A stretch of DNA of 15,469 bases from a virus. The notes beneath the pieces are model-generated. The model worked only from the letters and a program-made list of their open reading frames with translations, was not told the DNA's origin and searched no databases. Below, one piece after another: positions 116 through 15,469 of the stretch. Position 1 is the first letter of the stretch, and each line of letters opens with the position of its first letter. Position numbers and translations under genes: made by a program. Where the stretch lies: UHGV virus genome UHGV-1756799. One strand, 5' to 3'.

Positions 116-124
116 CAGAGCCTC

Positions 125-454: not shown

Positions 455-3400
455 TACCGATATGCTCCACTTAACCGACCACCATCACGGGCCTGCTGTT
501 GCATAAAGTCCGCTGCCGCTTTTTTCCCGAGGTCATAAACCGCCTTCAGGGCAGCCGGACCTATCTGCCCGTTCGTGCCATCGTTATTGATCTCGATGTT
601 GTACTGCGGGGAAAACATCGCCATACCTGAACCCCCAATATCCGCCACAACCCCCAGCTTACCGTCAGCACCACGACGCAATGGCAGAATGGCTTCAGGT
701 CCCGCTTCCCCCATCACACCCGCGCCTTTTGCAAAAGCAAAAAACGTCGGACGGTTAACCACCGTGCCACTGTAACGACTCAAATCAGCAGACTGATAAA
801 TCCCCCCATTGGCATTCAGGGAAAGGCTGCTGAGATCAAATCCCAGCACACTGCCAATCCCTTTTATCGATTTCATCATGGTTGCCTGCGCCAGGATTTT
901 CGCCATATCTGACAGCACAGAAGAGGTGAAGGATTTGAAATTGAGTTTGCCGGTAGTGACAAAAGTTGCCAGGCCATTTCCCATGTTGCTGAAGGCTGAC
1001 GAGAACACCTGTTCTGCTGTTCCTGCCGTATTATCTGCATCCACGGTAAAATCCTGAAATGCACGCAGGACTCCGTTTTTCCAGTTACCCTGCACAACTT
1101 CAAGCTGTTGCCAGTAACGGCGATTCTCATTCAGTTGTCGGTTCAGGCTCTCCGTCAGCGCCTGCTCGGCCTTTCTGTAGTCATCCGTGTTATATGTTCC
1201 TTTCTGCTCACTATCCCGCCTCAACTGCTCCAGCTGTTGCTGGTATTTCTGGCGAAGACTCAGTTGTACCTGATATCGCTGCCGCTGCTGATCACCCATA
1301 CCCACCGTGGCGATATCCAGGTCATGTTGCTGACGCTGAGCGCGCTCTTCTTCAGCCAGTTGACTGGTCAGCTGAATTGTTTTTTTCTTCAGCTCGTTGA
1401 GTGCCGTCTGTTTCTGAAGCTCCTGCTGTTTTACATCCAGCAGCGTCAGTGCCTGAATCAGTTCATCTTTACGGGCCAGCACACTCTTTTCATCTGCCGT
1501 CAGTTTTTTCCCGTCCAGGTCGCTGATGCGCTGCTGCAGAGCCAGAAGCTGTTTATGCGCTTCTGTCATCCTTTCCGTGGCAATGCCTGCTGACTGTCTG
1601 GCAGCAGCAATCTGTCCTTCCACCTGTGCCTGTTGCTGACTGTACTGCAGCAATAACCGGGTGGCCTCATCATTACGGGGTTCGCGTGTTTTTTTCTTAC
1701 CGGATGCCAGGGCTTTCTCGTAACGTTCATTTTCACGTTGTATCGCTGCATCCCTGACAGCCTGATCGGCGTACTGCATGGAATTAATACGCGCAATTTC
1801 ACGCTGATGTCGTGCTGCTTCCGTTTCATTCATCCGGTTCAGTGCAGCATTTTCAGCATTACGTCGTTTCTGTTGCTCCTGATAATTCCGCTCTGCCTGC
1901 TCTTTTGCATCCTGCAAATCCTTCTGGCGTTTTTTCTCCTGAAGATCGTTAAGACGCTGCTGATCGTATTCAACCTGAGAAGATGATGCCGTCCAGGGGA
2001 GTCTTTTCGCCCGCGACACTTTCTCCTGTAAAGCGGCAATCTGTTCATCCAGCGAGTCTTCACGACCAATATTCATGGCCGCATCCCAGAAACGACTCCA
2101 CAAATCAGACAGATACTTCAGCGTACTGCCAAGCGCATTGAGGTTATTATCAATATCCGCAGTACGCCGACCGGTTTCCTCTGCCAGTGCAGACATGGCT
2201 ATCCGTGCAGCATCACTGGACCGTCCCTGATCCCCAAGGACACGTATCTGCTCAAGCTGAGTGGCAGTAAGAAAATGCAGCTCATTGTCCAGAGCCTTCG
2301 CGGCATTTACAGGATCATCCTTCAGCCGCTTAAACTGATTTATGGTATCGCTGACCGACTGGCCAACCGATCGCTCCATCTGTGCGGCAGCTCTCGCCAC
2401 CATACCGATATCGTTTCCACGAAATGCACCACTCCCCACCACCTGAGCCAGCGCACCGGCTGCAGCATGTTGCGTGATACCATTCCCGGAAATAGCACGA
2501 CTGAGCGTCCACAGCTGCCCGGCAGTGACTCCGGCATAATGCCCCGTCAGCGACAACTGGCGGTTAAATTCTTCCCCCTCCTTCTGACCGTCATACCAGG
2601 CTTTACCCAGACCATAGACGGACGCGGCAATACCGCCAATAACCCCGCCAAGCATCATGCCTTTCGGTGACATCAGAGTGTCTATCCATCCGGCACGGTT
2701 AGCCAGCGTTATCCCGGATCCCCTCAGCGCCCCTAAATTGCCGCGGGCCAGTTCACCTATCAGAACGCCAATCTCCTGGCGGGCCGCTGCACTTTTCAGA
2801 CCCAGCGAATGCGTGGCTTTTCCTGCCTGCTCCATTTTGCGGATATACACTTCTGCAGCACTGCTTACCCCCAGCTGGGCAGCCTTAGCACGAAGCAACT
2901 CAGAAGAAGAAAGATTCTGGCGGGTTGCCTGCTCTTTAAGCTGACGGATAAACGCCACTTTCTGTCGGGTAGCCTCTTCCTCAGCCTGCGTAAGAACACG
3001 GGTTTTCGCCGTAACCTCAGAAATCAGCGCCAGATAATCCTGCTGACCAATCCCGCCACTGTTTCTGGCCTGTCGGATCTGCTGCTGAATACGCTGTAAT
3101 TCCTGCAGCCCCGCACTGGCCTGTTTCACACTGTCAATCTGACGATAAAACGCGGCAGCCGCTTTATCCTGAGCCTCCGCCAGAGCCATGGCCTGCGCCT
3201 GTTCCTCGCGCATTTTCTGGCTCAGTGCCTCCATACGCTGGCGGGTTTGCTCCACCTCGCGGGCCATGCGTTCATGAGCCTGTGCGCTCTTCTCCACCGT
3301 CTGCGCATGGACGGATGCGGCTGTTGCAGCCGAAGAAGCCGCCTGCATTGTCTGCCGGGCGGCCTGAGTCTGACGCTCCATAAAACGCTGCATACGGGCA

Positions 3401-3519
3401 GAAGACCGTTCTGCATCGCTGGCTGCACCATTCAGAAGGTTTTTGATACGGGGAATTTCATTTTTAAACTCTGCCGCATCAATCCCCAAATCAATGACCA
3501 GGTTGGCTATCTGGTCCAT
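454..3519 (-). CDS. H: Tail tape measure protein (lambda gpH-like), about 1021 aa
   Basis: Very long ORF rich in Q/A/E/R coiled-coil sequence with a Gly-rich hydrophobic segment; the track start at 3549 is TTG, so I chose ATG at 3519 (MDQIANLVIDLGIDAAEF, matching the lambda gpH N-terminal pattern) preceded by GGAGGTG. Confidence 0.9.
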   Translation of the reverse strand: MDQIANLVIDLGIDAAEFKNEIPRIKNLLNGAASDAERSSARMQRFMERQTQAARQTMQAASSAATAASVHAQTVEKSAQAHERMAREVEQTRQRMEALSQKMREEQAQAMALAEAQDKAAAAFYRQIDSVKQASAGLQELQRIQQQIRQARNSGGIGQQDYLALISEVTAKTRVLTQAEEEATRQKVAFIRQLKEQATRQNLSSSELLRAKAAQLGVSSAAEVYIRKMEQAGKATHSLGLKSAAARQEIGVLIGELARGNLGALRGSGITLANRAGWIDTLMSPKGMMLGGVIGGIAASVYGLGKAWYDGQKEGEEFNRQLSLTGHYAGVTAGQLWTLSRAISGNGITQHAAAGALAQVVGSGAFRGNDIGMVARAAAQMERSVGQSVSDTINQFKRLKDDPVNAAKALDNELHFLTATQLEQIRVLGDQGRSSDAARIAMSALAEETGRRTADIDNNLNALGSTLKYLSDLWSRFWDAAMNIGREDSLDEQIAALQEKVSRAKRLPWTASSSQVEYDQQRLNDLQEKKRQKDLQDAKEQAERNYQEQQKRRNAENAALNRMNETEAARHQREIARINSMQYADQAVRDAAIQRENERYEKALASGKKKTREPRNDEATRLLLQYSQQQAQVEGQIAAARQSAGIATERMTEAHKQLLALQQRISDLDGKKLTADEKSVLARKDELIQALTLLDVKQQELQKQTALNELKKKTIQLTSQLAEEERAQRQQHDLDIATVGMGDQQRQRYQVQLSLRQKYQQQLEQLRRDSEQKGTYNTDDYRKAEQALTESLNRQLNENRRYWQQLEVVQGNWKNGVLRAFQDFTVDADNTAGTAEQVFSSAFSNMGNGLATFVTTGKLNFKSFTSSVLSDMAKILAQATMMKSIKGIGSVLGFDLSSLSLNANGGIYQSADLSRYSGTVVNRPTFFAFAKGAGVMGEAGPEAILPLRRGADGKLGVVADIGGSGMAMFSPQYNIEINNDGTNGQIGPAALKAVYDLGKKAAADFMQQQARDGGRLSGAYR

Positions 3520-4218
3520 AACGCACACCTCCGGAAATACCTTCCCCAAGATGCATCAGTTCTTCGTCCGTTCGCTCCGGTATCCCGTTCTCTTCCGGTA
3601 AAAGGCTGAAATCAGCCACCGCAGCATCACTGCTACCGGACACCATTCTCACGATCAATGCCTTCAGCGAGGCAAACTGCGCATCCATCCACACATCACT
3701 GAAGCTCTGCATCCGGAAATAATCGCCCCACTCACCAAGCTCAGTGGCCGACATTTCCGACAGCATCCGCCGCCAGTCTGCCCGCCGGAACTCCCGGGCA
3801 AGCCGCATGACAAACTGCATTTCCCGCGTCAGGACTTTTCCGGCGTCAGCACCTCATGCTCCAAATCCCCGGCATTCTCAATGACTCCCATACCGCTCAG
3901 CGACAGAACCATCTCCGCCCCCGCTCCCAGGGCATCATACGACCATGTTGTAATAACGGATGCGCAAAGCGTCTCAACATCCTGAGACTGTTCCGCATTC
4001 CACAGTGAGCGGGAAACCAGCCAGGCATTGATATCCATCCCCATCCGCAGAAAAGCAATCTGTCGTTCAGCCTCCGGCAGTTCTCCCTCTTCGGCATCAA
4101 ACTTTGCCGTTCGCTGCTGAACAAACGCCAGATATTCAATTCTCTGCAGCCCGGACAGCTCACTGAGCACCACGGACTGCTTTTCATAATTAAACGTGCC
4201 CTGTTTCAGAAACATCAT
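3491..4218 (-). CDS. T: Tail assembly chaperone G-T fusion made by programmed -1 ribosomal frameshift near the end of G
   Basis: The T reading frame (3491-3853) is open and overlaps the 3' end of G in the -1 frame with no credible independent RBS; a slippery-like heptamer GGAAAAG (minus strand, plus coordinates 3835-3841) sits 2 codons before the G stop. G/GT frameshifting is conserved across long-tailed phages. Confidence 0.7.
3829..4218 (-). CDS. G: Tail assembly chaperone G
   Basis: Translation from ATG at 4218 (MMFLKQGTF...SELSGLQRIEYLAF) resembles lambda gpG; strong RBS GGTGGAG upstream; the track start at 4257 is TTG and runs through the V terminator hairpin, so I rejected it. Confidence 0.85.
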   Translation of the reverse strand: MMFLKQGTFNYEKQSVVLSELSGLQRIEYLAFVQQRTAKFDAEEGELPEAERQIAFLRMGMDINAWLVSRSLWNAEQSQDVETLCASVITTWSYDALGAGAEMVLSLSGMGVIENAGDLEHEVLTPEKS

Positions 4219-4231
4219 GTTCTCCACCTGC

Positions 4232-4255
4232 AAAAAAGCCCCGGATAACCGGGGC
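4232..4255 (-). terminator. Intrinsic terminator or attenuator between V and G
   Basis: Minus-strand GCCCCGG-TTAT-CCGGGGC hairpin followed by TTTTTT, immediately after the V stop (4276) and before the G RBS. Confidence 0.6.
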
Positions 4256-4275
4256 AAATGATGAGTATCGTCCTG

Positions 4276-5019
4276 TTAACCTGCGGCGCTGACAGCCACC
4301 GCAGCCACTGCCACAAAATCGCCGTCAGAAGTCATGCCCACAATGCTGACACTGCCCTGCTTCACGCCTTTCACCGTGGCCACAAGCCCGTTCAGGGTCA
4401 CCGTGGCAGTCTGTGGATCTGTCGAATGCACACTGATCGCTTTGTCACTGGCTCCGTCAGGTTTTACTGTAAAGGTCAGCGTGGTGGTTGCTCCCACTTT
4501 TACACTGGCAGATGCCGGTGCCACCGTCAGCCCGGTAACGCTCACTGTTTCAGTGCCTTCCTCTGCCAGATACGGACGCCCCACACCGCTGATTTTCACT
4601 GTGCGGGTCATCACGTCTTTTGAGGCAATGGTTTTACCCAGTGAGCTCAGCCAGCCACGGAAAACATCAACAGTGCCGTTGGGATATTTGATACGAAACG
4701 CGCAGACTTCACCGGAGTCGAACAACTGAACCAGTTTTTTCTGCCCGCTGTCACCCGGACGCCAGGCCAGCGTCGCCGAAGTATCACCGACGGATTTCTG
4801 CCCCTGGGTTGTCGTTTTCCAGTCTGCATCTTCATCATCGAGATAAGTGTCATCTTCTGCATCAGCGGTCATTTCGCCAGGTTGCAGATCCTTCACCATC
4901 GCAAGACGCAGCCAGTCAGTGTCCGATAAAGGGTTCGCAAACGCATCGCCCTTGCCGGTGTACATCCAGAACGTCGTTCCCGCACCTTTCGTTTTTGCCA
5001 GTGGATTTGGTGTGGTCAT
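4276..5019 (-). CDS. V: Major tail protein V with C-terminal Ig-like domain
   Basis: Translation resembles lambda gpV (PNP..KGAGTT, LDDEDADW, FRGW) with a Thr/Val-rich Big_2-like C-terminus; the track start at 5025 is GTG, so I chose ATG at 5019 preceded by AAGGAGGTG. Confidence 0.9.
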   Translation of the reverse strand: MTTPNPLAKTKGAGTTFWMYTGKGDAFANPLSDTDWLRLAMVKDLQPGEMTADAEDDTYLDDEDADWKTTTQGQKSVGDTSATLAWRPGDSGQKKLVQLFDSGEVCAFRIKYPNGTVDVFRGWLSSLGKTIASKDVMTRTVKISGVGRPYLAEEGTETVSVTGLTVAPASASVKVGATTTLTFTVKPDGASDKAISVHSTDPQTATVTLNGLVATVKGVKQGSVSIVGMTSDGDFVAVAAVAVSAAG

Positions 5020-5030
5020 TGCCACCTCCT

Positions 5031-5444
5031 TTAATTCGTGTACGTGATCTGGTACGTGATTTCCGCCATCGCCCAGGTGGCCATCTCATTATCACGTTGA
5101 TAGTTAAAACCGAGAGGGATCAGGGTGTCGATGAGTCCGGAAAGTGCCGGTATATCATTCAGGGCCGGGAAAATGGTGCTCTCCATCCACATATCCAGCT
5201 CTGAATCCGGTGCCTGTGCCCGGATGAAGACAGCAATATGCAGAACAGCCTGCCAGTCATCTTCATCCGTCATTTTTCCGGTGTACTGAGCATCACTCAG
5301 CCACACCGCCACGGCAGGCAGTTCCTGCGCATCAATAAATGCCGGAAGCCCGTCAAAAAACGTGGCGCTGTCTCCACACTGTTCCCGAAGGCGTGCCAGT
5401 ACGGCCTGGCGGATTTGTGTATGTCGGTTCATCGGGTCAGCCAT
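5031..5444 (-). CDS. U: Tail terminator protein U
   Basis: Similar to lambda gpU (ATFFDG.PA..D...PAVAV, DIPALS); the true start may be ATG at 5432 (MNRHTQIRQAVLARL, ATGA overlap with the Z stop) rather than 5444. Confidence 0.85.
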   Translation of the reverse strand: MADPMNRHTQIRQAVLARLREQCGDSATFFDGLPAFIDAQELPAVAVWLSDAQYTGKMTDEDDWQAVLHIAVFIRAQAPDSELDMWMESTIFPALNDIPALSGLIDTLIPLGFNYQRDNEMATWAMAEITYQITYTN

Positions 5445-6007
5445 AACCTCAGTTGTTGTTTCAGTGCATACCCCAGCTGTTTCGGCATTTCCGCAGCAAT
5501 AATGCGGTCGCGGGCATCTTCAAATGCCTGTGTCAGCGGTCCGGACAGCGGGACTTTCACCACATCAATGGGGTAACGATTTTTGCCATCAATACGCCGC
5601 ATCACATGCCAGCGACCATTCGCCAGTTGCTGAATAAACGCATCCCGGAAAAGATATTTACCCACCTTCAGCACACTGCCACGGTACTGCAGTTTTCCAC
5701 CACGCCGGGCCAGTCTGACCCGGGCTGTCCCCAGCTTAATAGCGGGCAGATTGCCCCGGTTAACGCGGATCCTGGCCGTCATTTTTCCTGACGGACTGGC
5801 TTTAAACACCCGGACACGCTGACGTACCAGTTTCAGGGGGATCCCTTTCACCTGGTTATCTCCCGCAACGGTATTCCCGGCAACCTGCCGGGTGGCGACC
5901 GAGACCGCTTTCTGTGCCACACGGTTTATCGCCCATGCGCTGGCCTGTGGCACCATACGGGTATCAAGGCTGTTCAGATTACGGATGGCATTCTCAAGCC
6001 CCTTCAT
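5429..6007 (-). CDS. Z: Tail completion protein Z
   Basis: 192 aa, the same length as lambda gpZ, in the syntenic position; RBS AGAGGTG 5 nt upstream of the ATG. Confidence 0.8.
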   Translation of the reverse strand: MKGLENAIRNLNSLDTRMVPQASAWAINRVAQKAVSVATRQVAGNTVAGDNQVKGIPLKLVRQRVRVFKASPSGKMTARIRVNRGNLPAIKLGTARVRLARRGGKLQYRGSVLKVGKYLFRDAFIQQLANGRWHVMRRIDGKNRYPIDVVKVPLSGPLTQAFEDARDRIIAAEMPKQLGYALKQQLRLWLTR

Positions 6008-6018
6008 CCCACACCTCT

Positions 6019-6294
6019 TTACTCAATAAAGATCATTGGCTTACCGTTAAAACGTTCATGCCGTGTGACCGTCCATTGTTGTCCGTCATAAACAACGCGA
6101 TCCCCGCGCCGTGGGCGGTATCCCGAAGAAAACACCACCAGAGAGACCGCAGGTCCGGACAGAGCATTCAGCTCTGCCAGTGTTTCTCCCGGGATCACAG
6201 TCATATCGACATCATTAATCGAGGCTGTCTTTCCCATCTTTCTGACCGTGATAGCATCCATACGCGCTGCCAGCCGGGAAAAGGGATCAGACAT
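6019..6294 (-). CDS. Head-tail joining protein, lambda FII-like (often annotated in Gifsy-type prophages as ATP-binding sugar transporter-like)
   Basis: 91-aa ORF between the head and tail modules; the RRGD motif and small size resemble gpFII; ATGTCTGA overlap with the upstream gene stop suggests coupling. Assignment is by position and weak resemblance only. Confidence 0.5.
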   Translation of the reverse strand: MSDPFSRLAARMDAITVRKMGKTASINDVDMTVIPGETLAELNALSGPAVSLVVFSSGYRPRRGDRVVYDGQQWTVTRHERFNGKPMIFIE

Positions 6295-6610
6295 TGAGTT
6301 TTACCGGCACTTCTTCTGCACTGGTTCCGGCATCTGCCCAGACAACCCCGACCAGCGGATCAGAGCCGCTGTTAGTCAGCTGAACTTTTCCGGACTTCAG
6401 ATAAACCTTCTTACCCGTTTTCATGTCATCCGTTTTCAGCTTAGGCAGCATAAACACACCTTCGGTCATGCCGTCGCCTGTTTCACCCTGTGGAATATCG
6501 GTCAGCGCCACCGCAAAAACATCGCCCACCTGCACCAGATCTCCGCTGCTGATGGCTGCACTGGCAACAATCGCCACCGTTTTTCCTTCTTCTACAAAAT
6601 TCTTTGCCAT
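6287..6610 (-). CDS. DUF2190-like small head-associated protein (possible decoration or head-completion protein)
   Basis: About 107 aa from ATG at 6610 (MAKNFVEEGKTV...) with RBS GGAGA; the track start at 6655 is TTG and overlaps terminator hairpins. Family assignment is from memory of prophage capsid-adjacent genes. Confidence 0.5.
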   Translation of the reverse strand: MAKNFVEEGKTVAIVASAAISSGDLVQVGDVFAVALTDIPQGETGDGMTEGVFMLPKLKTDDMKTGKKVYLKSGKVQLTNSGSDPLVGVVWADAGTSAEEVPVKLNV

Positions 6611-6653
6611 AACTGTCTCCGCACAGCCCCGTTCAGGGGCTGATTTCAGGTAC

Positions 6654-6673
6654 AAAAAAAGCCCTTACGGGCC
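6654..6673 (-). terminator. Intrinsic terminator downstream of the capsid gene (partial or leaky)
   Basis: Minus-strand GCCC-GTAA-GGGC followed by TTTTTTT, 24 nt after the capsid stop; a second GC hairpin (CAGCCCC-N5-GGGGCTG, 6625-6643) follows. Confidence 0.5.
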
Positions 6674-6696
6674 ATCAGAGTTGTTGTCTGCGACGT

Positions 6697-8655
6697 TTAC
6701 GCCGTACATTTCACCAGACCGCGGTGATCAACTGGCGCGACACCGGCGTCAATACGCACTTTCGTTGTCACGCCATCCACACTGAAGCCCTCCATCTGAT
6801 CAATATATGGCGTATCCACACCGTTGAGATAAGCCACTTCAATCGTATCGGAGCCTTTTGACGCAGCCAGGTAGAAGGTGGTCTGGCTGTTATCATCAAG
6901 ACGAGGCTCTGCAATAACGGTCGCAAAATCTTTCACCGGGTTAATAATACCGGCGTTAATGTCAGCCCCCTTGACACTTGAGGAGCGAATGACCTGGTTA
7001 GCAACAGACTCCATCGCCGTCGGTACCAGTACGAACGCAGGACGAATATTCAGATGACGCTCCCCCTCTTTCTGAACGCGCATCAACTGGCGGGCTTTAT
7101 CCAGCGATGCCACGTCCATTGCAGCGCTCTCCAGTACGTTTGCATGTTTCGCTTTATCGAACAGACTTACATTATCTGTGGAGATTTTCGGGTTAGACGT
7201 CAGAATGGCATAAACCAGATCGGCAATAGTGGATTTCGCCGCACGGCCCAGTTTCATCGGGACATCGGTCAGCATATTCAGATCATCATTGATAATGGCC
7301 TGACGGGTGATACTGAACAGCTCGCCATAGGTCGCCAGTGCAATAGTGGCCTGTTTATCTCCGGTGGTGACGTATTTATATTCCGCCCCTTCACGCACCT
7401 GACGTAGAGCACTGAAGCCCCCCATACCCACACGATGGGCAATTTTAAAATCAGACAACTGACCTTTCCGCGTCCACTGTTCATAGGTTTCAGGGGCATC
7501 TTCCCAGCCCTGCAGAATGGCTTTGTTCGCAACATCCAGCAGAATATTACCGAAGTCAGACGTACTGTGTGTGAACGCCGCACCGACCATCTGCATCGGG
7601 TTATAACCGGAAACCCCAATACCCCGTTCAGTTAGTGACATACGGGCATATTCACGCAGGGTCATCCCGTTGTAGACATTATCACGTTCGGTTTTTTCAA
7701 ATCCGGCACGCGCCATCAGCGCCTGGCGAATCCCGTCCCCCACAAAATTACCGTTACCGGCATAAATATGAGCCGGGGTATTTTTATTGGATGGCGTGGA
7801 CTCGCGCCCCATCTCGTTCAACAGCTTTTCACGGGCCTGCTCCAGCGAACATTCAGGATCGGCAAGACACTGGGCCTGCAGCGTCTGATAACGCCCGCCA
7901 AACATGGCAAACAGATCATTAATACCGTTTACACGCGCTTTTTGCTCTGCCAGTACCTGCGCACGGATACTGTTTTCATCCACCACGGGTGCTGCTGCCT
8001 GCACTGGCGTCCGGGAGGCTGCAGGTTCATCATCCTGTACGCGTGGAGCACTGTTGCGTGGCGGAGTAATCATGTTTCGAATGGATTCCGGCATCTTTTT
8101 AAATTCCTCTGTACGTTTTGACTGAATACATGCCATTGCCTTAACGGCTGGTGTCACCTGATCAGCAAATCCCTGTGCCAGACATTCGGCACCGGACATC
8201 CAGGTCTCATCCGCCAGCATGGCAGCAATTTCATCGGTGGTTTTCCCGGTTTTCTGTGCATAAGCGGGTAACAGAACCGCCTCAACTTTATCGAGCAGGT
8301 CGGCATAGGTGCGCATGTCCTCCGCATCACCGCCCGTAAAGCCAAATGGTTTATGAATCATCATGAAGGAGTTTTCCGGCATAATGACCGGGTTTCCCAC
8401 CATCGCAATGACCGACGCCATTGACGCCGCCACACCGTCGACATAAACGGTAATGGACGCACCATGTGTTTTCAGTGCATTAAAAATGGCGATGCCTTCA
8501 AAGACATCGCCACCCGGTGAATTAATATGGAGATTAATGTGGGTGATATCGCCCAGTGCATTCAGATCACTGATAAACTGCTTCGCTGTAACACCCCAGA
8601 AACCAATCTCGTCATAAATATAAATATCCGCGTCACTCTGGTGACCTGCCTGCAT
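6697..8655 (-). CDS. Prohead protease (ClpP/S49-like) fused to HK97-fold major capsid protein, about 652 aa
   Basis: N-terminal part has ClpP-like sequence (IYIYDEIGFWG...INSPGGDVFEG...MMIHKP); the long C-terminal part looks like a phage major capsid protein; single continuous ORF. The track start at 8916 is TTG and overlaps the portal by 248 nt; I chose ATG at 8655, 13 nt after the portal stop. Confidence 0.8.
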   Translation of the reverse strand: MQAGHQSDADIYIYDEIGFWGVTAKQFISDLNALGDITHINLHINSPGGDVFEGIAIFNALKTHGASITVYVDGVAASMASVIAMVGNPVIMPENSFMMIHKPFGFTGGDAEDMRTYADLLDKVEAVLLPAYAQKTGKTTDEIAAMLADETWMSGAECLAQGFADQVTPAVKAMACIQSKRTEEFKKMPESIRNMITPPRNSAPRVQDDEPAASRTPVQAAAPVVDENSIRAQVLAEQKARVNGINDLFAMFGGRYQTLQAQCLADPECSLEQAREKLLNEMGRESTPSNKNTPAHIYAGNGNFVGDGIRQALMARAGFEKTERDNVYNGMTLREYARMSLTERGIGVSGYNPMQMVGAAFTHSTSDFGNILLDVANKAILQGWEDAPETYEQWTRKGQLSDFKIAHRVGMGGFSALRQVREGAEYKYVTTGDKQATIALATYGELFSITRQAIINDDLNMLTDVPMKLGRAAKSTIADLVYAILTSNPKISTDNVSLFDKAKHANVLESAAMDVASLDKARQLMRVQKEGERHLNIRPAFVLVPTAMESVANQVIRSSSVKGADINAGIINPVKDFATVIAEPRLDDNSQTTFYLAASKGSDTIEVAYLNGVDTPYIDQMEGFSVDGVTTKVRIDAGVAPVDHRGLVKCTA

Positions 8656-8668
8656 CCTGAACCAGGAA

Positions 8669-10177
8669 TTATTCTTCGGACTGGTCGTCGGTGTGCTGCG
8701 GCTCCTGTCGTTTCGTTGCGGCACTGCTGCCTCCTTTATCACTGGCCGGATCGGTATCAAATACCAGATCCAGCTTGCGGTTTTCATCAATTTCGGCCTT
8801 GCGCCGACGTTTGACATCATCCGGATTACGACCACCTGCACGTACCCAGTCTGATTCTGTCGCCGCTCCACCACGAATCTGAATTTTCCAGGCCTCAGCC
8901 TCCTTAACAGGGTCAATCCACGGCATCACCGGTCCGGAATACACCGCGGTATACAGTGAAGAACGATCAAGATCGCGGGGTAGCCTGATAACACCGGATG
9001 CCACAGCCTGTTTCAGCCAGGCACGATACATCGGGCGGGTGACGGCACCAATAAACCAGTCCTGCAGGATCAGGTAGCCATCAGTGGATTCAACCAGCTC
9101 CTGACGCTGGGCGCTGTAAGTGCCGTTATAGTTGCGTGCCGTACTGGAAAAACTCAGACGACTGCCCGCCGCCACGGCACGCAACTGACCATTACGAAAA
9201 GTTTCAAGGTTAGGATTGGGACGATCCGACTTCACCATTCCGATTTCTTCGCCGGGTTTCAGATCGTCGTAAATAATGCCTGGCTGAATGGTAAGCTCGC
9301 GTTCATTCTCCTTGCTGCCATTACCATCCGGTTCATAGCTCTGCCCGTCGCCTTTCCGGATGTACATCCCCAGAGCAGCGGCGATCCTTGCTGCAGTCAG
9401 CTCAGAATCTTCATACTCTTTCAGGGCACTGAGGCGGATCAGCACACCGGACAACAAAGACGTCCCGCGCATCTGGTGCAGACGGCGAACAAATTTAAGA
9501 TGCAGCATTCGCTCTGCATCCACTTCTTTGGTTTCCATCTGCCGCCCGGATACGGGACGGCTTTTATACACCAGATATTTTTCGGGACGCCCCCAGTCAT
9601 CAACAAACACGCCCTGATTCAGCCTGTTGCTCTCATCACTGGTCATGGGAATAAAGTCCGGCTCGAGCGCCTCCAGCCAGAAATGAACACCGGCAGAAGG
9701 CGTCAGGCTGTTTATGCGCCCGGAAACCATCTGGGCAAACACCTCACCATCGCGCAGCCAGGTACGCAGCATCAGACGTTCCAGCATCGGACGGGTAAAC
9801 TGCCCGGTGACTTCCGGACTGACAGACCATTCACTCCATCGGGTGCGTATCTCCGCTGCCAGATCACGGGCAATGGCCCCATTGCGTAATACCGGATGTG
9901 GCTCGACAATAATCCCGTTTTTCCCCACCACCCGTTCTTCCAGCTTGTCAAATACACCAATAACCAGATCGTGGTTGTTATCAAGGTAACGGGCCTGCTC
10001 ACGTAACGACACGGCCCCGTACTGGCTTAACTGGTCGGCAGTTCGGTTTTCCCGCCGGGCTTTGTGTGTCCGTGTCGTTTTTACGGCCTCATAAGCCTGG
10101 ATCACCGCACGGGAACGCAGCCTTGCCGCTTTCCATCCTGGTGAAAAAACGCCAATCACATCATCAAGAATTGCCAT
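8669..10177 (-). CDS. Portal protein
   Basis: About 502-aa ORF between the gpW-like gene and the protease-capsid gene; the track start at 10249 is GTG; ATG at 10177 (MAILDDVIG...) overlaps the gpW-like stop as TGATG. Size, position and acidic C-terminus fit a portal. Confidence 0.8.
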   Translation of the reverse strand: MAILDDVIGVFSPGWKAARLRSRAVIQAYEAVKTTRTHKARRENRTADQLSQYGAVSLREQARYLDNNHDLVIGVFDKLEERVVGKNGIIVEPHPVLRNGAIARDLAAEIRTRWSEWSVSPEVTGQFTRPMLERLMLRTWLRDGEVFAQMVSGRINSLTPSAGVHFWLEALEPDFIPMTSDESNRLNQGVFVDDWGRPEKYLVYKSRPVSGRQMETKEVDAERMLHLKFVRRLHQMRGTSLLSGVLIRLSALKEYEDSELTAARIAAALGMYIRKGDGQSYEPDGNGSKENERELTIQPGIIYDDLKPGEEIGMVKSDRPNPNLETFRNGQLRAVAAGSRLSFSSTARNYNGTYSAQRQELVESTDGYLILQDWFIGAVTRPMYRAWLKQAVASGVIRLPRDLDRSSLYTAVYSGPVMPWIDPVKEAEAWKIQIRGGAATESDWVRAGGRNPDDVKRRRKAEIDENRKLDLVFDTDPASDKGGSSAATKRQEPQHTDDQSEE

Positions 10178-10395
10178 CAGAACCTCGCCAGCCGGTACCC
10201 GGGATGCCCCCGTCGTCGTGTAATCAGAGCCGCAAGGCGGCGCTCCCACTCCTGCCGTCCCTGCCGGATCTCAGATAAGTTTTCCATGGTCATCTGCTGA
10301 CCATTAAAGGTGACGGATTTTCCGTCCAGCACCGCCATTTCAGCTTCCGTATAACGCTGAATCATGGCTTCGATATCATTCTGGTTCATAACCAT
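10177..10395 (-). CDS. W: gpW-like head-tail joining protein
   Basis: About 70-aa ORF ending in RRRGHPGY, resembling the C-terminus of lambda gpW (QRRRGPAGF); the second ATG at 10389 overlaps the terminase stop as ATGA. Confidence 0.7.
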   Translation of the reverse strand: MVMNQNDIEAMIQRYTEAEMAVLDGKSVTFNGQQMTMENLSEIRQGRQEWERRLAALITRRRGHPGYRLARF

Positions 10396-12488
10396 CCTCC
10401 GGAAGTCAGCCAGGGGTTAACATCGTCAGTTACTGTTTTCTTCCGTTTTTGTTTTTTAACAGGCGTGGATACCGGTTCCGGTGTGGGTGACGGTTCGGTA
10501 CTGTCCGGGACACACTCCAGCCAGGTTTCCCGGCTCGCCCACTCCGGTGCATCCGGCCAGCGGATCTTTTCGTATCCATGCAGAATGACCAGAGCCTCGG
10601 CATACACCATCAGGTCAAAAGCTTCGTTGGCACCGCGACCCGGCTTACTCCATTTCCCGTCACTGCTCCGCTCTTCATACGTCAGTTCGTCGTAAAACCA
10701 GCTCCCCAGCCAGTCAGGGAAATGCACATAGCCGGGACCTGGCGAGTCACGCCATAACGCGTTATTCACCCGGTCTTTCAGGGCATCCGTCTGAAGAAGC
10801 CAGAGCGGCACATCACCTGCGGCCTGCGCCCGGCGGCCCGTTCGTCCGGTGTTATCAGGGAATGTACGGCTGATCAGTTTTGCGCGCCGGATGCTGTCAC
10901 CCTTAAACAGGTAAATACGTTTACCAAGGCCATCACGACGGCAACGACGCCAGAATTTATAGGCATTATCAGTGACCCCGTCTTCACCGCCGGAGTCCAC
11001 CGCCATTGCCATCAGTCGCATTTGTTGAGAAGGATCGGAGGCCAGCGGCCAGCTTTTATGAAAAACATCCGTCAGCAGGACATCCCAGTCTTCCGGATAG
11101 CTGGCCGGATCAATTCGCTGGCTCTCCCCGTCGCTGTCACCGCGCAATGACTGCGTGATGTTGTAACGATCAATAATCCAGCGTTCGCCACGGCTGCCAT
11201 AGCCCGTTACCTGAACCACAAAACGGCGATGACGTCCCGCCTGCACATCCACTGTCGCCACAAGGAAATTAACGCCATCCGGCACACTGCGGGAAGGAAC
11301 TGGCTCTGCCCGCTGCTCAAGCAATTCACTTTTTCGTTGCTCCATGCTGGCGCGGGGAAGATAAGGTAATCCCCAGTCGGTATTGATAACCGTCTTGAGT
11401 GTCTCTTCACTTCCGGTTGTCTCGTATTCCTGTTCTGCAGTAAGCAGTTTGTAAACGAGTTGCGAGAGTGTCTGATAAGCAGCTGCCGGACCCTCCATCC
11501 AGAATGACGCAATACGTGAACGCCGGGGATCACCATAACGACTGCCATCTGCATTGATGGATTCACCATCCCGTAACCAGACCCCACGTCCGTTCAGCTC
11601 GCGTTTTTGTTCAGGCAAAATCCGTCCTGAACAGGAAGGACACTGAATATAAGCCGCCTCACTTGCCAGCACAGGATCGGCAATATCACGGAAACCAGCA
11701 ACCACATCGCCGCAGGGCTGAAAATACTCACCACAGTGTGGACAGGGCCAGTACCAGCGACGGCGATCGCCACGGTTATAGAGCGACAGGATCCCCGTGG
11801 TTGGTGGAGCCTCATGCGGTGAAGTCCGTCGCCATTTCACATCCTTCACATCCCTGCCGGGGGAACTCTCCACCAGCGTCATACCACTGGACATAAATGT
11901 GGTGGTACGTTTTGAGGCAAGAGAGAAGGCATCCCCCTCACCATCAATATCTTCCGGAAAACGGTCATAATCCGTCAGCGCCACGCATTTATAATCTGAT
12001 GAAGACATGATATTGACTGACGGCCAGCCGATTTTCAGGTAGTTGCCAGCAAGGAATGTTCTGTCATAAACGTTGTTGTCATTTTTGTTCGGACTCAGGC
12101 GACTGACCACTTCCGGGCTGACGCGAAACGTTCTGGCGAGTCGTTTTTTGGAGTGTTCGCGGGCTTTTTCCTCCGTCATCTGAATGATCAGCATATCAGC
12201 AGGATCGCAAATCACGTTGTAAATCACCCAGCCGTCAATCAGGCCGATAGTCTTGCCGGTTCGTGCCGGGCCAACAAATATCACTGCGTCGTATTCACGC
12301 GAGGCCAGGCAGTTCATAGGCTCAATAACATACGGTGCCACCAGCGGATCCCACGGGACTGAGTTCCCTGCCCCCATAGGCACCCGCATATACTGAGCAA
12401 CGGCATCAGCAACCCGCATTCGTCTCGGTGCGCGAAGGATATAACCTGAATCGGTTCGTGCTGCCTTTGCGGTTTCCTGATTCAGCAT
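10386..12488 (-). CDS. Terminase large subunit, GpA family
   Basis: 700-aa ORF with Walker A-like VGPARTGKT, a CPHCGE zinc-finger-like motif as in lambda gpA, and acidic nuclease-domain residues; start overlaps the small-subunit stop as TAATG. Confidence 0.9.
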   Translation of the reverse strand: MLNQETAKAARTDSGYILRAPRRMRVADAVAQYMRVPMGAGNSVPWDPLVAPYVIEPMNCLASREYDAVIFVGPARTGKTIGLIDGWVIYNVICDPADMLIIQMTEEKAREHSKKRLARTFRVSPEVVSRLSPNKNDNNVYDRTFLAGNYLKIGWPSVNIMSSSDYKCVALTDYDRFPEDIDGEGDAFSLASKRTTTFMSSGMTLVESSPGRDVKDVKWRRTSPHEAPPTTGILSLYNRGDRRRWYWPCPHCGEYFQPCGDVVAGFRDIADPVLASEAAYIQCPSCSGRILPEQKRELNGRGVWLRDGESINADGSRYGDPRRSRIASFWMEGPAAAYQTLSQLVYKLLTAEQEYETTGSEETLKTVINTDWGLPYLPRASMEQRKSELLEQRAEPVPSRSVPDGVNFLVATVDVQAGRHRRFVVQVTGYGSRGERWIIDRYNITQSLRGDSDGESQRIDPASYPEDWDVLLTDVFHKSWPLASDPSQQMRLMAMAVDSGGEDGVTDNAYKFWRRCRRDGLGKRIYLFKGDSIRRAKLISRTFPDNTGRTGRRAQAAGDVPLWLLQTDALKDRVNNALWRDSPGPGYVHFPDWLGSWFYDELTYEERSSDGKWSKPGRGANEAFDLMVYAEALVILHGYEKIRWPDAPEWASRETWLECVPDSTEPSPTPEPVSTPVKKQKRKKTVTDDVNPWLTSGGWL

Positions 12489-12982
12489 TACTCCTCCTGC
12501 TGTAATTCCTCCTCATCATCCGCACCTGCTTCAGTCACCCGCAGGGCTATCTGATCGCGCAGATCATCAATAATGGACTGAACACGGCTCACAGCGGCAG
12601 GCTGCAGACCGCAGTCACGTTCAAGAATATCCGGTAATGTCTCCAGCACCTGCACGACCGCTTTTGCCCAGATGGCAAACTCCCGTCTGACATCACTGGC
12701 CGGAATGAGTTGTGCCGTTTCCTGTTCGAACTTAAGACGCTCACGTTCAGACTGATACCAGGCTTTGCGCTCATGCGCGTCCATTTCGCCTTCTGCAACC
12801 GGCGGTGGTAATGCCAGAAATGCCGACACAATATCAACCACCCGATAAAGCTTGAGGTTGCTTTCATGCCCCCCTGCAACGGGTAGATTTTGCAGCCTTG
12901 CCGCAGCAGTCTGGCGATGTACACCTGACAATGCCGCCAGTTGACTGATATTCAGCGTCAGATTTTTTAACTCTCGATCCAT
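12488..12982 (-). CDS. Terminase small subunit (Nu1-like), N-terminal HTH
   Basis: 164 aa directly upstream of the large terminase; N-terminal helix-turn-helix-like segment (LNISQLAALSGVHRQTAAARL) and acidic C-terminus; RBS GGAG 5 nt upstream. Confidence 0.75.
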   Translation of the reverse strand: MDRELKNLTLNISQLAALSGVHRQTAAARLQNLPVAGGHESNLKLYRVVDIVSAFLALPPPVAEGEMDAHERKAWYQSERERLKFEQETAQLIPASDVRREFAIWAKAVVQVLETLPDILERDCGLQPAAVSRVQSIIDDLRDQIALRVTEAGADDEEELQQEE

Positions 12983-13085
12983 ACCCGCTCCAGAATGTTT
13001 TAAACATGCATCTTGCGAACAACTTTAGGCAAACGGTGTTAGTGATGAACAAAAAACAATCAGAATCGACACCATAAAAATAAAT

Positions 13086-13116
13086 CCACTGTAATATCAA
13101 TCAATTACAGTAGTGG
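13086..13116. promoter_or_regulatory. Imperfect inverted repeat with an embedded IHF-consensus match (candidate cosB-type terminase/IHF binding region)
   Basis: CCACTGTAAT...ATTACAGTAGTGG inverted repeat; TATCAATCAATTA (13095-13107) fits WATCAANNNNTTR; lies between the GC-rich element and the small-terminase start. Confidence 0.35.
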
Positions 13117-13159
13117 TGATGACGAATAAAATTTCAAAAACTAGCCTTTTTCCGCGACG

Positions 13160-13192
13160 CTCCCGCCCCGTGGCAGGGGCCCCCACCGGGAG
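13160..13192. promoter_or_regulatory. GC-rich nested palindrome, candidate cosN-like terminase cleavage site
   Basis: CTCCCG-CCCC-GTGGCA-GGGG-CCCCCAC-CGGGAG: outer CTCCCG/CGGGAG and inner GCCCC/GGGGC inverted repeats in a sharply GC-rich island inside AT-rich DNA, about 180-210 bp upstream of the terminase small-subunit start, comparable to cos-Nu1 spacing in lambda. Confidence 0.35.
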
Positions 13193-13197
13193 GACCC

Positions 13198-13220
13198 GAC
13201 AGCCTGACAGCCTGACAGCC
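13198..13220. repeat. Tandem direct repeat, about 2.9 copies of the octamer GACAGCCT
   Basis: gacagcct gacagcct gacagcc read directly from the sequence, adjacent to the palindrome. Confidence 0.85.
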
Positions 13221-13356
13221 GTGACGAGCATCTGATACAGCGCTTTACATAATGGCATAGGAATAATTCAGAAGGACATCACAGCATGCCCACACAAATT
13301 AGTGTGAGTGTCCTGTTTCTTCCTACGCACAGGACTGACGAGCATGAGGGGAAAAT

Positions 13357-13524
13357 ATGCGAACCATAAATGCCTCATCTTCAGCAATGCAGCCGGCATC
13401 CGAACAGGACGATATTGTAAATTCACCTAATTACGAGGACATTGCAGTAGTTGAATTGCAGCTCTGTATTAGCCTGACAGTGACAGAATGCGATATTGAC
13501 TCTGTCACAGGTGAAATAGTTTGA
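13357..13524 (+). CDS. Hypothetical small acidic protein, 55 aa
   Basis: Not in the ORF track (below 60 aa). ATG at 13357 with GAGGGG 5 nt upstream; translation MRTINASSSAMQPASEQDDIVNSPNYEDIAVVELQLCISLTVTECDIDSVTGEIV. No homolog recognised; it converges on the 68-aa ORF with only 20 nt between stops and no terminator. Confidence 0.25.
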   Translation: MRTINASSSAMQPASEQDDIVNSPNYEDIAVVELQLCISLTVTECDIDSVTGEIV

Positions 13525-13544
13525 ATGATTAGCAGTTATGGTGC

Positions 13545-13751
13545 TCAGTCAACCACCAGGGAATAATCCTTCGAATTCTTATCGTGCTTCACCAACGCTG
13601 CCTCAATTGCCCTGAATGCTTCCAGAGACACCTGATGTTCTATACATGCAATTACAACATCCGGGTAACTCATAGAAATGGTGCTATTAAGCATATTTTT
13701 TACACGAATCAGATCCAACGAGAGTTCATCAGCAGATTGTTCTTTATTCAT
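13545..13751 (-). CDS. Hypothetical small protein, 68 aa (possibly the counterpart of K-12 Qin ynfO by position)
   Basis: ATG start with GGAG 7 nt upstream; lies between the terminase/cos region and the ydfO-like gene, where K-12 Qin carries a small gene between nohQ and ydfO. I do not recognise the sequence itself. Confidence 0.45.
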
Positions 13752-14051
13752 TTTGTCGCTCCATGCGTTTGCTCGTCATCTAGCGGTTAAAATATTACTT
13801 CAAATCTTACTGCATAAAAGAGGAAAAGTATGAAAGTTTGAGTACATCGACCTTACATACATCTGTCGGTTGCATATCCCTCCTGGATGCCAGCAAGGCT
13901 CAATTTTGTTACGCAATCAACACTATTCATTAAAAACAGGCTTAATATTTGACATAAATCATCAACAAAACACAAAGAGGTCAGACCAGATTAAAACAAT
14001 AAACACGATAATGCAAACTACGCGCCATCGTATCACATGGAAGGTTTACCA

Positions 14052-14462
14052 ATGGCTCAGGCTGCCATTTTTAAAGAAATATTCGATCAAGTGCGTAAAG
14101 ATTTAAACTGTGAATTATTTTATTCTGAGCTAAAACGTCACAATATCTCACTTTATATTTACTATTTAGCCACAGATAATATTCACATTGTGTTAGAAAA
14201 CGACAACATAGTGTTAGTAAAAGGACTCAAAAAGGTTGTAAATGTTAAATTCTCCAGAAACAAACATCTTATAGAGACCTCCTATAATAAGTTGAAATCA
14301 AAAGAAATCACATTTCAACAATACAGGGAAAATCTTGCTAAAGCAGGAGTTTTCCGATGGGTTACAAATATCCAGGAACACCAAAGATATTACTATGCCT
14401 TTGATAACTCATTACTATTTACTGAAAGCATCCAGAAAACTACACAGATCTTACCACGCTAA
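14052..14462 (+). CDS. ydfO: YdfO-like protein (DUF1398 family), prophage moron
   Basis: 136 aa from the second ATG ([11 protein letters not shown]...), which has GGAAGG 7 nt upstream; the first ATG at 14037 lacks an RBS. Matches my recollection of K-12 Qin YdfO and its position next to gnsB and the Nu1-like gene. Confidence 0.6.
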
Positions 14463-14470
14463 ACCATAAC

Positions 14471-14499
14471 GTCCGGCTTCTCTCACTCCTGAGCCGGAC
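14471..14499 (+). terminator. Hairpin downstream of ydfO-like gene (weak candidate terminator)
   Basis: GTCCGGCT-13 nt-AGCCGGAC, 8-bp stem beginning 9 nt after the stop; large loop and no clean T-tract. Confidence 0.3.
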
Positions 14500-14551
14500 T
14501 GCATTGGTTTAATAAAAACCATCAACAATTGTGATTTAGATATTCGGAACC

Positions 14552-14574
14552 ATTCAAATATAACAAAACCCCGT
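14552..14574 (-). terminator. Candidate intrinsic terminator for the gnsB-like gene
   Basis: Minus-strand CCUCG-UUUUUA-CGGGG (one G-U pair) followed by UUUUGUU, about 40 nt after the gnsB-like stop. Confidence 0.4.
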
Positions 14575-14613
14575 AAAAACGAGGTTTATGGATAAATTTT
14601 ATTATTGAATACA

Positions 14614-14790
14614 TCAGATTAAATTAATCTTGACATCATAGCTTTCAAGACCCGTCATTTTTTCCCGTGCGGTAAACTGAATACTGGTAACTTCTTTCCC
14701 GGTCTTTTTCTTAAGTTCAATAATTTTTTTTGTTATATATTCAGAAATATCTGCTTCTGCTTTTGTTTTTAAGTTTTCAATATTCATCAT
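14614..14790 (-). CDS. gnsB: GnsA/GnsB-family protein, 58 aa
   Basis: Not in the ORF track (below 60 aa). Translation MMNIENLKTKAEADISEYITKKIIELKKKTGKEVTSIQFTAREKMTGLESYDVKINLI; the FTAREKMTGLESYDVKI segment matches E. coli GnsA/GnsB as I recall them; RBS AAGAGGAAA upstream. Confidence 0.8.
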   Translation of the reverse strand: MMNIENLKTKAEADISEYITKKIIELKKKTGKEVTSIQFTAREKMTGLESYDVKINLI

Positions 14791-14958
14791 TTCCTCTTTT
14801 AGTCTGTTATGACTTTCCAGTTACACAGTAAGTCGATTATATGGTGCAAACGTGTAAAAGATAAGATGAAACATCGCAATAATCAACATACGATAGTCTA
14901 AATTTTACACAAACAGACAAAGAGAATTTTCCTGAATTATCAATACAATAGCATCAAA

Positions 14959-15189
14959 TCAACTCAAGAGCCTTATTGCTGCTTCCAGAATTTCTTCTGA
15001 AGTAACATGTCGATCCGCGGCTACATAAATGACTTTATGATCTCCGGTCAGAGATGGAAACCCTGCGGCCATTACAGTAAGGTGTGTTTTTTCGCCATTT
15101 GGATATTCACGCATGATGGTGTTAACTCCAGTCATCGCTGGCACTACCACTGCTGGTTCAGAGTTAAAAAAAACTATGATTTTTTTCAT
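14959..15189 (-). CDS. Small protein, 76 aa, upstream partner of the gnsB-like gene (YmcE/YnfN-like by position and size)
   Basis: ATG at 15189 (MKKIIVFFNSEP...); the track start at 15231 is TTG and lies in the terminator. Same strand as and 168 nt upstream of gnsB, like ymcE-gnsA and ynfN-gnsB in K-12. Weak RBS; sequence not recognised with certainty. Confidence 0.5.
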   Translation of the reverse strand: MKKIIVFFNSEPAVVVPAMTGVNTIMREYPNGEKTHLTVMAAGFPSLTGDHKVIYVAADRHVTSEEILEAAIRLLS

Positions 15190-15233
15190 GATGTTACCGT
15201 AGTATGTGAGTATCCATCGAATAGATACCAAGC

Positions 15234-15253
15234 AAAAAAGCTCCCGAAGGAGC
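15234..15253 (-). terminator. Intrinsic terminator (possibly bidirectional)
   Basis: Minus-strand GGCUCC-UUCG-GGAGC(C) with a UUCG tetraloop followed by UUUUUU; the plus-strand side is also followed by T-rich sequence. Immediately after the stop at 15262 of an upstream minus-strand ORF. Confidence 0.6.
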
Positions 15254-15261
15254 CTTCATTT

Positions 15262-15418
15262 TCACTTTTTTAAATCCAACGACAGACGGCTGGCATTTAA
15301 GTATTGTGAAATATTATCAAATGTAATCATCATTGATTTACAAAAGATACATTTTGCCCCGAAAGGATTCATGTCAGAAACATCAAAAGATGATGTTCTA
15401 TACTGGGAACCATGACAA
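15262..15418 (-). CDS. C-terminal fragment of an unidentified minus-strand gene (truncated by the contig end)
   Basis: Open minus-strand frame ending at TGA 15262-15264 (...YRTSSFDVSDMNPFGAKCIFCKSMMITFDNISQYLNASRLSLDLKK) and followed by a strong terminator; the track ORF 15262-15447 extends into adapter sequence, so only 15262-15418 is genomic. Confidence 0.25.
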
Positions 15419-15469
15419 CTGTCTCTTATACACATCTCCGAGCCCACGAGACATCTCAGGATCTCGTAT
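15419..15469 (+). other. Illumina Nextera (Tn5 mosaic-end) adapter read-through; not biological sequence
   Basis: CTGTCTCTTATACACATCTCCGAGCCCACGAGAC, then an 8-nt index-like ATCTCAGG, then ATCTCGTAT (start of the P7 sequence). Confidence 0.95.

Follow-up and report, generated by a model that had tools for sequence, protein, structure and literature searches.

The window, a stretch of 15,469 nt from the virus genome UHGV-1756799, carries toward its end a cluster of small genes and putative control elements, whose coordinates are compiled in Table 1. RefSeq annotation gives a minus-strand order of rrrQ and rzpQ (lysis), cspI, ynfQ (named ymcF in some records), ynfR, ynfN and gnsB, followed past gnsB by a convergent DUF1398 (ydfO-like) gene, a hypothetical gene, and the genes for DUF1441, TerL, the portal and the remaining late functions. 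Sequence comparison revealed positions 1–15,419 to be 100% identical to many complete Escherichia coli chromosomes, while the last 50 bases (15,420–15,469) matched no genome and presumably represent an Illumina Nextera i7 adapter. As these terminal bases are adapter-like and without a genomic counterpart, the end of the contig inside ynfQ is artificial.

Table 1. Features of the ynfQ–gnsB region, with positions counted from the first base of the window.
Feature	Position	Strand	Description and basis
Convergent DUF1398 gene (ydfO-like)	14052–14462	+	Pfam PF07166 (E = 2.2e-43) and annotation; terminase-side boundary of the cassette
gnsB intrinsic terminator	14556–14587	-	AAACCUCGU-UUUU-ACGGGGUUU with U-rich tail; terminator scan
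gnsB	14614–14790	-	58 aa from the first ATG (14790); RefSeq: 57 aa from the second ATG (14787), i.e. 14614–14787
ynfN–gnsB spacer	14791–14958	-	168 nt; promoter-like element, TATAAT, leader, Shine-Dalgarno site
ynfN, full length	14959–15189	-	76 aa; 100% identical to WP_000720962.1 ('protein YnfN')
T8 homopolymer	15165–15172	-	ynfN codons 6–9; alignment with the K-12 Qin prophage and K-12 annotation
ynfR	15194–15259	-	21-aa small ORF (MKAPSGAFLLGIYSMDTHILR); RefSeq-annotated
cspI–ynfQ intrinsic terminator	15234–15256	-	GGCUCC-UUCG-GGAGC followed by U6; -12.5 kcal/mol, z = -2.2
ynfQ, 3′ part	15262–15419	-	ymcF-like cold-shock small protein; annotation mapping and tblastn against YnfQ; 5′ end missing at the genuine contig end

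The segment from 14,400 to 15,419 was matched by 2151 of the 20,395 records searched, 1499 of them at an identity of at least 99%. Within it, the module spanning positions 14,560–15,419 recurs at 100% identity in phage Tritos, a prophage of LF82 (OV696610.1), and at ~93% identity in phages 2H10, mEp460_ev081, HannyBb and PhiR63_1. That ynfR, ynfN and gnsB are annotated at 100% identity in many complete genomes implies that these ORFs do not occur by chance, and this identity makes the two small ORFs singled out in the original prediction ynfN and gnsB themselves, both annotated previously in E. coli prophages of the Qin/Tritos type, rather than lookalikes. The cassette sits between rzpQ/rrrQ and the genes for DUF1441 and TerL, i.e. 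in the position of a moron, and consists of non-structural, non-lytic cargo; this much of the view of the pair as a moron within the late operon is borne out. At the lysis–terminase junction of related prophages, the cassette is absent and other cargo is found instead. Genes, gene order and prophage location had thus been annotated before, and GnsB has already been reported as a Tritos moron: in an LF82 lysogen, it is among the Tritos genes transcribed above the prophage background (bioRxiv 10.1101/2022.10.28.514194). An Rfam scan of positions 13,500–15,469 at E ≤ 1 returned no known RNA family.

The assignment of the 58-aa ORF to the GnsA/GnsB family, for which a profile search had been proposed as a check, proved correct, and the gene is gnsB itself. 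Its product matches Pfam family PF08178 (GnsAB_toxin) with E = 3.3e-35 and 120.2 bits (cut-off 27), residues 2–55 aligning with positions 1–54 and hence with the full 54-position model. Residues 1–56 of GnsB further align with structurally solved GnsA (4XO2_A; E = 5.4e-20). The protein belongs to PHROG 2301 and is 100% identical both to WP_001019606.1 and to GnsB of a K-12-like locus in E. coli ECDA1023. dN/dS ratios for gnsB amounted to 0.04–0.07 in comparison with Citrobacter, and to 0.22 in comparison with a closely related E. coli allele. Overproduced Gns raises the proportion of unsaturated fatty acids and acidic phospholipids, especially at low temperature; overexpression of K-12 gnsA/gnsB is reported to raise unsaturated fatty acids and to suppress fabA6(Ts) and a secG null mutation (Sugai 2001 and 2004, as cited in later studies). 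PADLOC reported no defense-system match for either GnsB or YnfN.

The upstream ORF of 76 aa, nested in a 90-aa ORF with a TTG start, is the full-length ynfN. YnfN matches phrog_3425 (PHROG 3425, function unknown) with E = 7e-54 over positions 1–76 of 76, and its homologues, ranging from 76% down to ~30% identity, are consistently 75–76 aa long and share a near-invariant MKKxIVFFN start. Against Citrobacter orthologues, ynfN displayed dN/dS ratios of 0.07–0.22 (Nei-Gojobori), and the first 25 codons alone ratios of 0.03–0.27, which points to purifying selection over the whole length of the gene. The 76-aa ORF is therefore conserved among relatives, in answer to a doubt that the original prediction itself had raised. 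An AF2 model (pLDDT 89.5) depicts a beta-rich protein of five strands and a C-terminal helix, with residues 2–7 and 14–18 forming strands of the sheet at a pLDDT of ~90. Fold and family searches with YnfN gave no significant match, including to any antitoxin or DNA-binding family or fold. A YnfN HMM searched exhaustively against 1.84 billion representative proteins retrieved 46 matches at E ≤ 0.001, almost all of them ~40–110 aa in length; the only long match was weak, and no link to a larger family emerged from this search.

In the reference strain K-12 MG1655, ynfN is annotated as a gene of merely 51 aa. Alignment traced this to the homopolymer run listed in Table 1, which comprises seven rather than eight T residues in K-12, the 1-nt deletion shifting the frame of the first 25 codons. 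Viral contigs scanned for exact patterns gave 102 matches to the T8 allele vs. 15 to the T7 allele, and in C. murliniae, ynfN has independently acquired a +1 frameshift immediately past the run. Taken together, the T7 alleles and the independent Citrobacter event mark the A7/T8 stretch as a mutational hot spot. The K-12 annotation, along with the existence of a PHROG of its own for the 51-aa form (phrog_4911), could be read the other way around, namely that the 51-aa form is the true gene, the 25 N-terminal codons are an untranslated leader, and the 76-aa ORF is an annotation artefact. However, selection acts on precisely these codons, the start motif persists to ~30% identity, the modeled sheet incorporates the two N-terminal strands with high confidence, and K-12 deviates by a single base in a homopolymer, so that we regard the chance of an artefact as negligible. 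Conservation, selection and the allele counts instead show that the 76-aa protein is the functional form of YnfN and the K-12 gene a frameshift-truncated allele.

Both terminators of the original prediction exist. Upstream, the core hairpin and T-run occupy exactly the predicted positions (15,234–15,253), with the RNAfold stem reaching 15,256. This hairpin is kept in Citrobacter and at the cspG–ymcF locus, its stem surviving changes in sequence. Downstream, the terminator is real but had been placed at 14,552–14,574, an interval confined to the tail and the 3′ arm of the hairpin: the hairpin spans positions 14,566–14,587, with a T-rich tail to ~14,556 (-11.1 kcal/mol, z = -3.2), and a terminator-like hairpin is found at the equivalent position in Citrobacter. 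What did not hold was the conclusion that the two terminators bracket a self-contained pair. The upstream terminator belongs to ynfQ and lies within the ynfR ORF, which starts 5 nt before the core hairpin, crosses the terminator, and stops 4 nt short of the ynfN ATG. A SPA-tagged YnfR was detected and found to be strongly induced by cold shock (VanOrsdel et al., PMC6001520); as the start codon and the tagged end of ynfR flank the terminator, cold-induced YnfR-SPA implies cold-induced read-through. The ynfR ATG is absent from Citrobacter and likewise not conserved at the cspG locus. In some Citrobacter species, a small ORF crosses the terminator to finish at the start of ynfN (ATGA overlap), yet this arrangement was rejected as a general feature for not being conserved across species.

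Were ynfN and gnsB an operon in their own right, independent of cspI, one would expect a promoter just past the ynfQ terminator. Such an operon would agree with the presence of both terminators, and in the fold of the spacer no hairpin terminator is evident, so ynfN transcripts could run on into gnsB. Yet, only ~45 nt separate the T-run from the ynfN ATG, a promoter scan between the ynfQ terminator and ynfN found none, and the best hexamer pair in this interval (TTGGTA-19 nt-CATACT) is of poor quality, with hardly any room for a leader. Published RNA-seq data also show ynfN to behave like the genes upstream of the terminator: upon AZT induction, cspI, ynfQ and ynfN rose 6.5-, 5.9- and 5.8-fold, and their SspA dependence amounted to 38-, 42- and 51-fold, respectively (PMC11228462). 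The cold-induced ynfR ORF, moreover, bridges the terminator and the start of ynfN, and distant relatives retain ynfN together with csp where gns is absent. An independent ynfN–gnsB operon hence appears very unlikely. With ynfN co-regulated with cspI and ynfQ, and gnsB preceded by a conserved promoter-like element of its own, the presumed bracketed unit would more aptly be viewed as the tail of the cspI operon (ynfR–ynfN) with an autonomous gnsB unit behind it. In terms of what is expected of a moron, gnsB possesses a terminator and, going by a conserved motif, a putative promoter, and ynfN is without a visible promoter of its own.

The spacer between the two same-strand genes measures 168 nt, just as originally predicted. 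It harbors a promoter-like element, TTGATTATTGCGA...TATCTTTTACA, at ~14,842–14,875. Alignment of the regions upstream of gns from Escherichia, Citrobacter, a chromosomal locus whose protein is source-labeled Hafnia, and a gns copy located after a Mn-catalase gene revealed a conserved block, TTGATTATTGA(A/G)..TTTC...(C/G)TTTATA, that in most lineages reads as TTGAAT-17 nt-TATAAC or TATAGA. The block is followed by a conserved leader, ACAGACC-AGAAGAGG, which ahead of gnsB takes the form of an ACAGAC..AAGAGG leader with Shine-Dalgarno site. Motif and leader were present upstream of every gns copy aligned, of the gnsA as well as the gnsB type, and with or without ynfN. We take the block to be a putative gns promoter and leader. 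A consensus promoter scan omits the spacer element, which matches 8 of 12 positions, and the conserved -10 position is weak in the window (TACACG). An E. coli-specific TATAAT at ~14,824–14,829, i.e. 18 nt downstream of the conserved -10 position, may be the promoter that is actually used. The fold of the 168-nt spacer (z = -1.8) offered neither a convincing structure nor an internal terminator, and for want of the latter, read-through may also reach gnsB. Judging from the aligned upstream regions, gns genes look like autonomous promoter–leader–ORF–terminator units that travel with csp genes. The ACAGAC(C) motif was also considered as a csp 'cold box', but local alignment of the cspI leader with the region upstream of gnsB yielded nothing meaningful.

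To what extent ynfN and gns accompany one another was assessed in a species-level sample of 26 Gns loci, drawn from Escherichia, Shigella, Citrobacter, and two metagenome bins with apparently wrong labels. In all 26, a csp gene and a ymcF/ynfQ homologue lie immediately upstream of gns. ynfN is present in between at 15 of these loci and absent from the other 11, which comprise gnsA-type loci (E. coli, E. albertii, E. ruysiae, E. whittamii, and others) and two Citrobacter loci. The chromosomal locus with a protein source-labeled Hafnia likewise has the order csp–ymcF–gns without ynfN. Conversely, five distinct kinds of locus encode a YnfN homologue without gns. Among them are loci with ynfN directly after csp (L010–L012, with a second ynfN paralogue as well), loci with ynfN divergent from csp (L239–L241), a locus with ynfN divergent from a ynaE-family gene (L242), and unrelated prophages with ynfN between lysis and terminase genes (L235, L243–L245). 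The ynaE/ydfK genes are cold-shock-induced. In an unrelated stress-gene island (L236/L237), ynfN and gns are 2.6 kb apart with three genes in between. Gns loci devoid of ynfN and YnfN loci devoid of gns imply that neither gene needs the other. What the two have in common, as far as their genomic neighborhoods tell, is the company of cold-shock genes and the phage lysis–terminase junction. Their being neighbors in 15 of 26 loci, and their proximity in the stress-gene island, may reflect a looser functional link.

These distributions bear on the suggestion, made in the original prediction by analogy with a proposed YmcE–GnsA pair, that the two genes behave like a toxin–antitoxin (TA) module in which GnsB is the toxin and YnfN neutralizes it. 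The notion has a basis in nomenclature, Pfam and PGAP naming the family 'GnsA/GnsB toxin' and 'addiction module toxin', and in TA surveys that list ymcE–gnsA with the partner placed upstream. These names follow a crystallographic study reported to have found GnsA toxicity relieved by YmcE (Wei et al. 2015, as cited by others), to which, within the TA literature surveyed, the citations for the TA label all trace back; the toxicity claim concerns GnsA and YmcE alone. The small upstream gene also shares the strand of gnsB and adjoins gns at the 15 loci mentioned above, and one preprint found persister counts to be elevated upon overexpression of gnsA/gnsB. Against a TA relationship, co-occurrence fails in both directions. 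The spacer (168 nt here, ~205 nt in Citrobacter) contains a promoter-like motif, whereas type II pairs are usually tight or overlapping, and YnfN lacks a match to any antitoxin or DNA-binding family or fold. K-12 and ~13% of the viral-contig alleles combine a frameshifted ynfN with an intact gnsB, a configuration hard to explain if YnfN were an essential antidote, short of the 51-aa remnant being sufficient. In addition, several independent studies employed gnsA/gnsB plasmids as multicopy suppressors, with growth restored in several backgrounds and unsaturated fatty acids raised.

Nor does the analogy with ymcE hold. The gene layout had been said to mirror those of ymcE–gnsA and ynfN–gnsB; the locus is indeed ynfN–gnsB itself, but YnfN is unrelated to YmcE, and ymcE DNA did not align with ynfN. 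The cspG–ymcF–ymcE–gnsA locus is a paralogous block, in which cspG, ymcF and gnsA take the places of cspI, ynfQ and gnsB, respectively (63–67% protein identity between GnsA and GnsB), and it shares with the stretch analyzed here a terminator after ymcF/ynfQ, a promoter-like motif, and a leader before gns. In contrast, it is without ynfN, and the gap between ymcF and gnsA is ~190 nt, as opposed to ~470 nt between the corresponding genes here. The ymcE ORF shares 26 nt with ymcF and 11 nt with gnsA, and covers the ymcF terminator and the promoter-like motif of gns. In five of the seven Escherichia lineages examined, its frame is broken or its start codon lacking: the start codon is missing from E. 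albertii and from one E. coli, the latter also having an in-frame stop, and E. ruysiae, E. sp. E1V33 and E. whittamii have a disrupted frame. Across the seven lineages, by comparison, the terminator, the promoter-like motif and the leader that lie within the region are near-invariant. Disruption of the frame alongside retention of these elements indicates that the region evolves as regulatory DNA rather than as a protein-coding sequence, and ymcE is probably not a gene. With the partner of the model pair not a conserved ORF in Escherichia and ynfN and gns found apart, a TA pair is highly improbable in our view, and the comparative evidence argues for ynfN and gnsB being two independent cargo genes.

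Collectively, we consider it highly probable that the stretch carries the downstream half of the known Qin/Tritos cargo cassette cspI–ynfQ–ynfR–ynfN–gnsB, wherein ynfN and gnsB became neighbors through their association with csp genes, not through neutralization of one product by the other. Under this scenario, a cspI transcript induced by cold shock would be partly stopped at the ynfQ terminator, and those transcripts that read through would carry ynfR and ynfN, the translation of which might be coupled, given that ynfR stops 4 nt before ynfN starts. gnsB would form a separate mini-unit, its putative sigma-70-like promoter lying in the spacer ahead of a conserved leader and Shine-Dalgarno site, with a terminator of its own at the far end, and may in addition receive read-through transcription. 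In light of the effect of Gns on unsaturated fatty acids and acidic phospholipids, the cassette would most plausibly supply the lysogen with functions for adaptation to cold and of membrane fluidity. Further-reaching, and in our estimate unlikely, is a model in which ynfR and the ynfQ terminator it traverses form a gate that responds to cold—operated by translation of ynfR or by Csp antitermination—for ynfN and possibly gnsB, in which YnfN is a cold-shock effector with an unrecognized fold acting together with GnsB in membrane or lipid adaptation, and in which the slippery T8 run serves as an on/off switch.

The present analysis entails modest annotation corrections that should be useful for the curation of E. 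coli small proteins and for TA catalogues. For one, the reference K-12 ynfN of 51 aa would be listed as a truncated allele of a conserved 76-aa gene. For another, the 'addiction module toxin' label attached to GnsA/GnsB appears weakly founded, the partner ymcE not being a conserved ORF and ynfN failing the test of co-occurrence.

Compared with known systems, the region is closest to the K-12 Qin prophage (cspI–ynfQ–ynfR–ynfN–gnsB–ydfO, b1552–b1549) and Tritos, which have the same genes in the same order and on the same strands. Over ynfQ–gnsB, three differences between K-12 and the window were seen, namely the T8/T7 indel and two substitutions; K-12 YnfR deviates by one residue (I/V), and the K-12 ydfO-like protein is 77% identical. 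With type II TA modules such as relBE and yefM–yoeB, the pair shares two small genes on the same strand, residence on a mobile element, and a family name for the downstream gene that contains the word 'toxin'. It differs from them in the long spacer with its promoter-like motif, in partners that are also found apart, in the absence of an antitoxin or DNA-binding fold from YnfN, and in gns having repeatedly been isolated as a growth-restoring multicopy suppressor. Lambdoid morons at the lysis–terminase junction, exemplified by lambda bor, resemble the cassette in that their cargo is dispensable for lytic growth, has its own terminator, and, going for the cassette by the data on Tritos GnsB, is transcribed in the lysogen. 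Unlike bor, however, the cargo here is a cluster of cold-shock genes instead of a surface or virulence factor, and falls into two or more transcription units, with a convergent gene in addition.

The K-12 reference strain MG1655 has lost a single nucleotide from a T8 run in ynfN (b1551), so that its 51-aa version is a shortened allele of what is otherwise a conserved gene of 76 aa. Exact matches in viral contigs numbered 102 for the T8 allele vs. 15 for the T7 allele, and Citrobacter murliniae carries an independent +1 frameshift adjoining the same run.

Four nucleotides upstream of ynfN ends the annotated small protein gene ynfR, whose codons 2–9 contain the intrinsic terminator of ynfQ. Published cold-shock induction of YnfR-SPA (PMC6001520) thus implies read-through of this terminator. 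In Citrobacter, the ynfR ATG is missing, yet the terminator hairpin is kept.

Features of the window and of two enterobacterial contigs, with coordinates
Feature	Sequence source	Coordinates	Strand	Detail
Inverted repeat, 8 bp, GC-rich	Window	14470-14500		GUCCGGCU...AGCCGGAC
T8 run	Window	15165-15172	minus	ynfN codons 6-9
ynfR	Window	15194-15259	minus	
Adapter-like end	Window	15420-15469	plus	CTGTCTCTTATACACATCTCCGAGCCCACGAGAC-ATCTCAGG-ATCTCGTAT
YnfN paralogues	L010	2037-2279; 3001-3228		
YnfN paralogues	L012	725-952; 2766-2993		

At the opposite side of the module, the convergent DUF1398 gene is followed, directly past its stop codon, by a GC-rich inverted repeat, with the gnsB terminator on the repeat's other side. 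The segment containing it folded at −20 kcal/mol (z = −3.3), and the repeat may represent the terminator of this ydfO-like gene, or a bidirectional one.

The last 50 bases of the window matched none of the E. coli genomes searched and read as what we take to be an Illumina Nextera i7 adapter with index N715; the contig thus ends in an artefact of assembly. Here, ynfQ fused to translated adapter makes up the 61-aa ‘GTG’ ORF (15262..15447, minus strand). Two metagenome-assembled genomes of the genome collection, labelled Veillonella parvula (L014) and Mucilaginibacter sp. (L030), contributed contigs that match gnsB or gnsA loci of E. coli at 100% identity and are probably binning contaminants.

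YnfN homologues also occur in other settings. In some enterobacterial contigs (L010, L012), a csp gene is flanked by two diverged YnfN paralogues; these contigs lack gns and carry a truncated remnant resembling ynfQ. A chromosomal stress-gene island (L236/L237; Logan ERR11172906, ERR11172909) comprises, in order, HSP20, a YnfN homologue, two unknown genes, Mn catalase and a Gns homologue; here, gns retains the conserved upstream motif and is adjoined by neither csp nor ymcF.

At the paralogous cspG-ymcF-ymcE-gnsA loci, ymcE was compared across seven Escherichia lineages (L028, L029, L031, L032, L034, L035 and L036; positions about 2770–3015). The reading frame lacked a start codon, was frameshifted or was interrupted in five of the seven, and the underlying DNA, comprising a terminator, a promoter-like motif and the gnsA leader, was near-invariant. 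The proposed antitoxin gene of GnsA, ymcE, has the look of a spurious reading frame overlying regulatory sequence.
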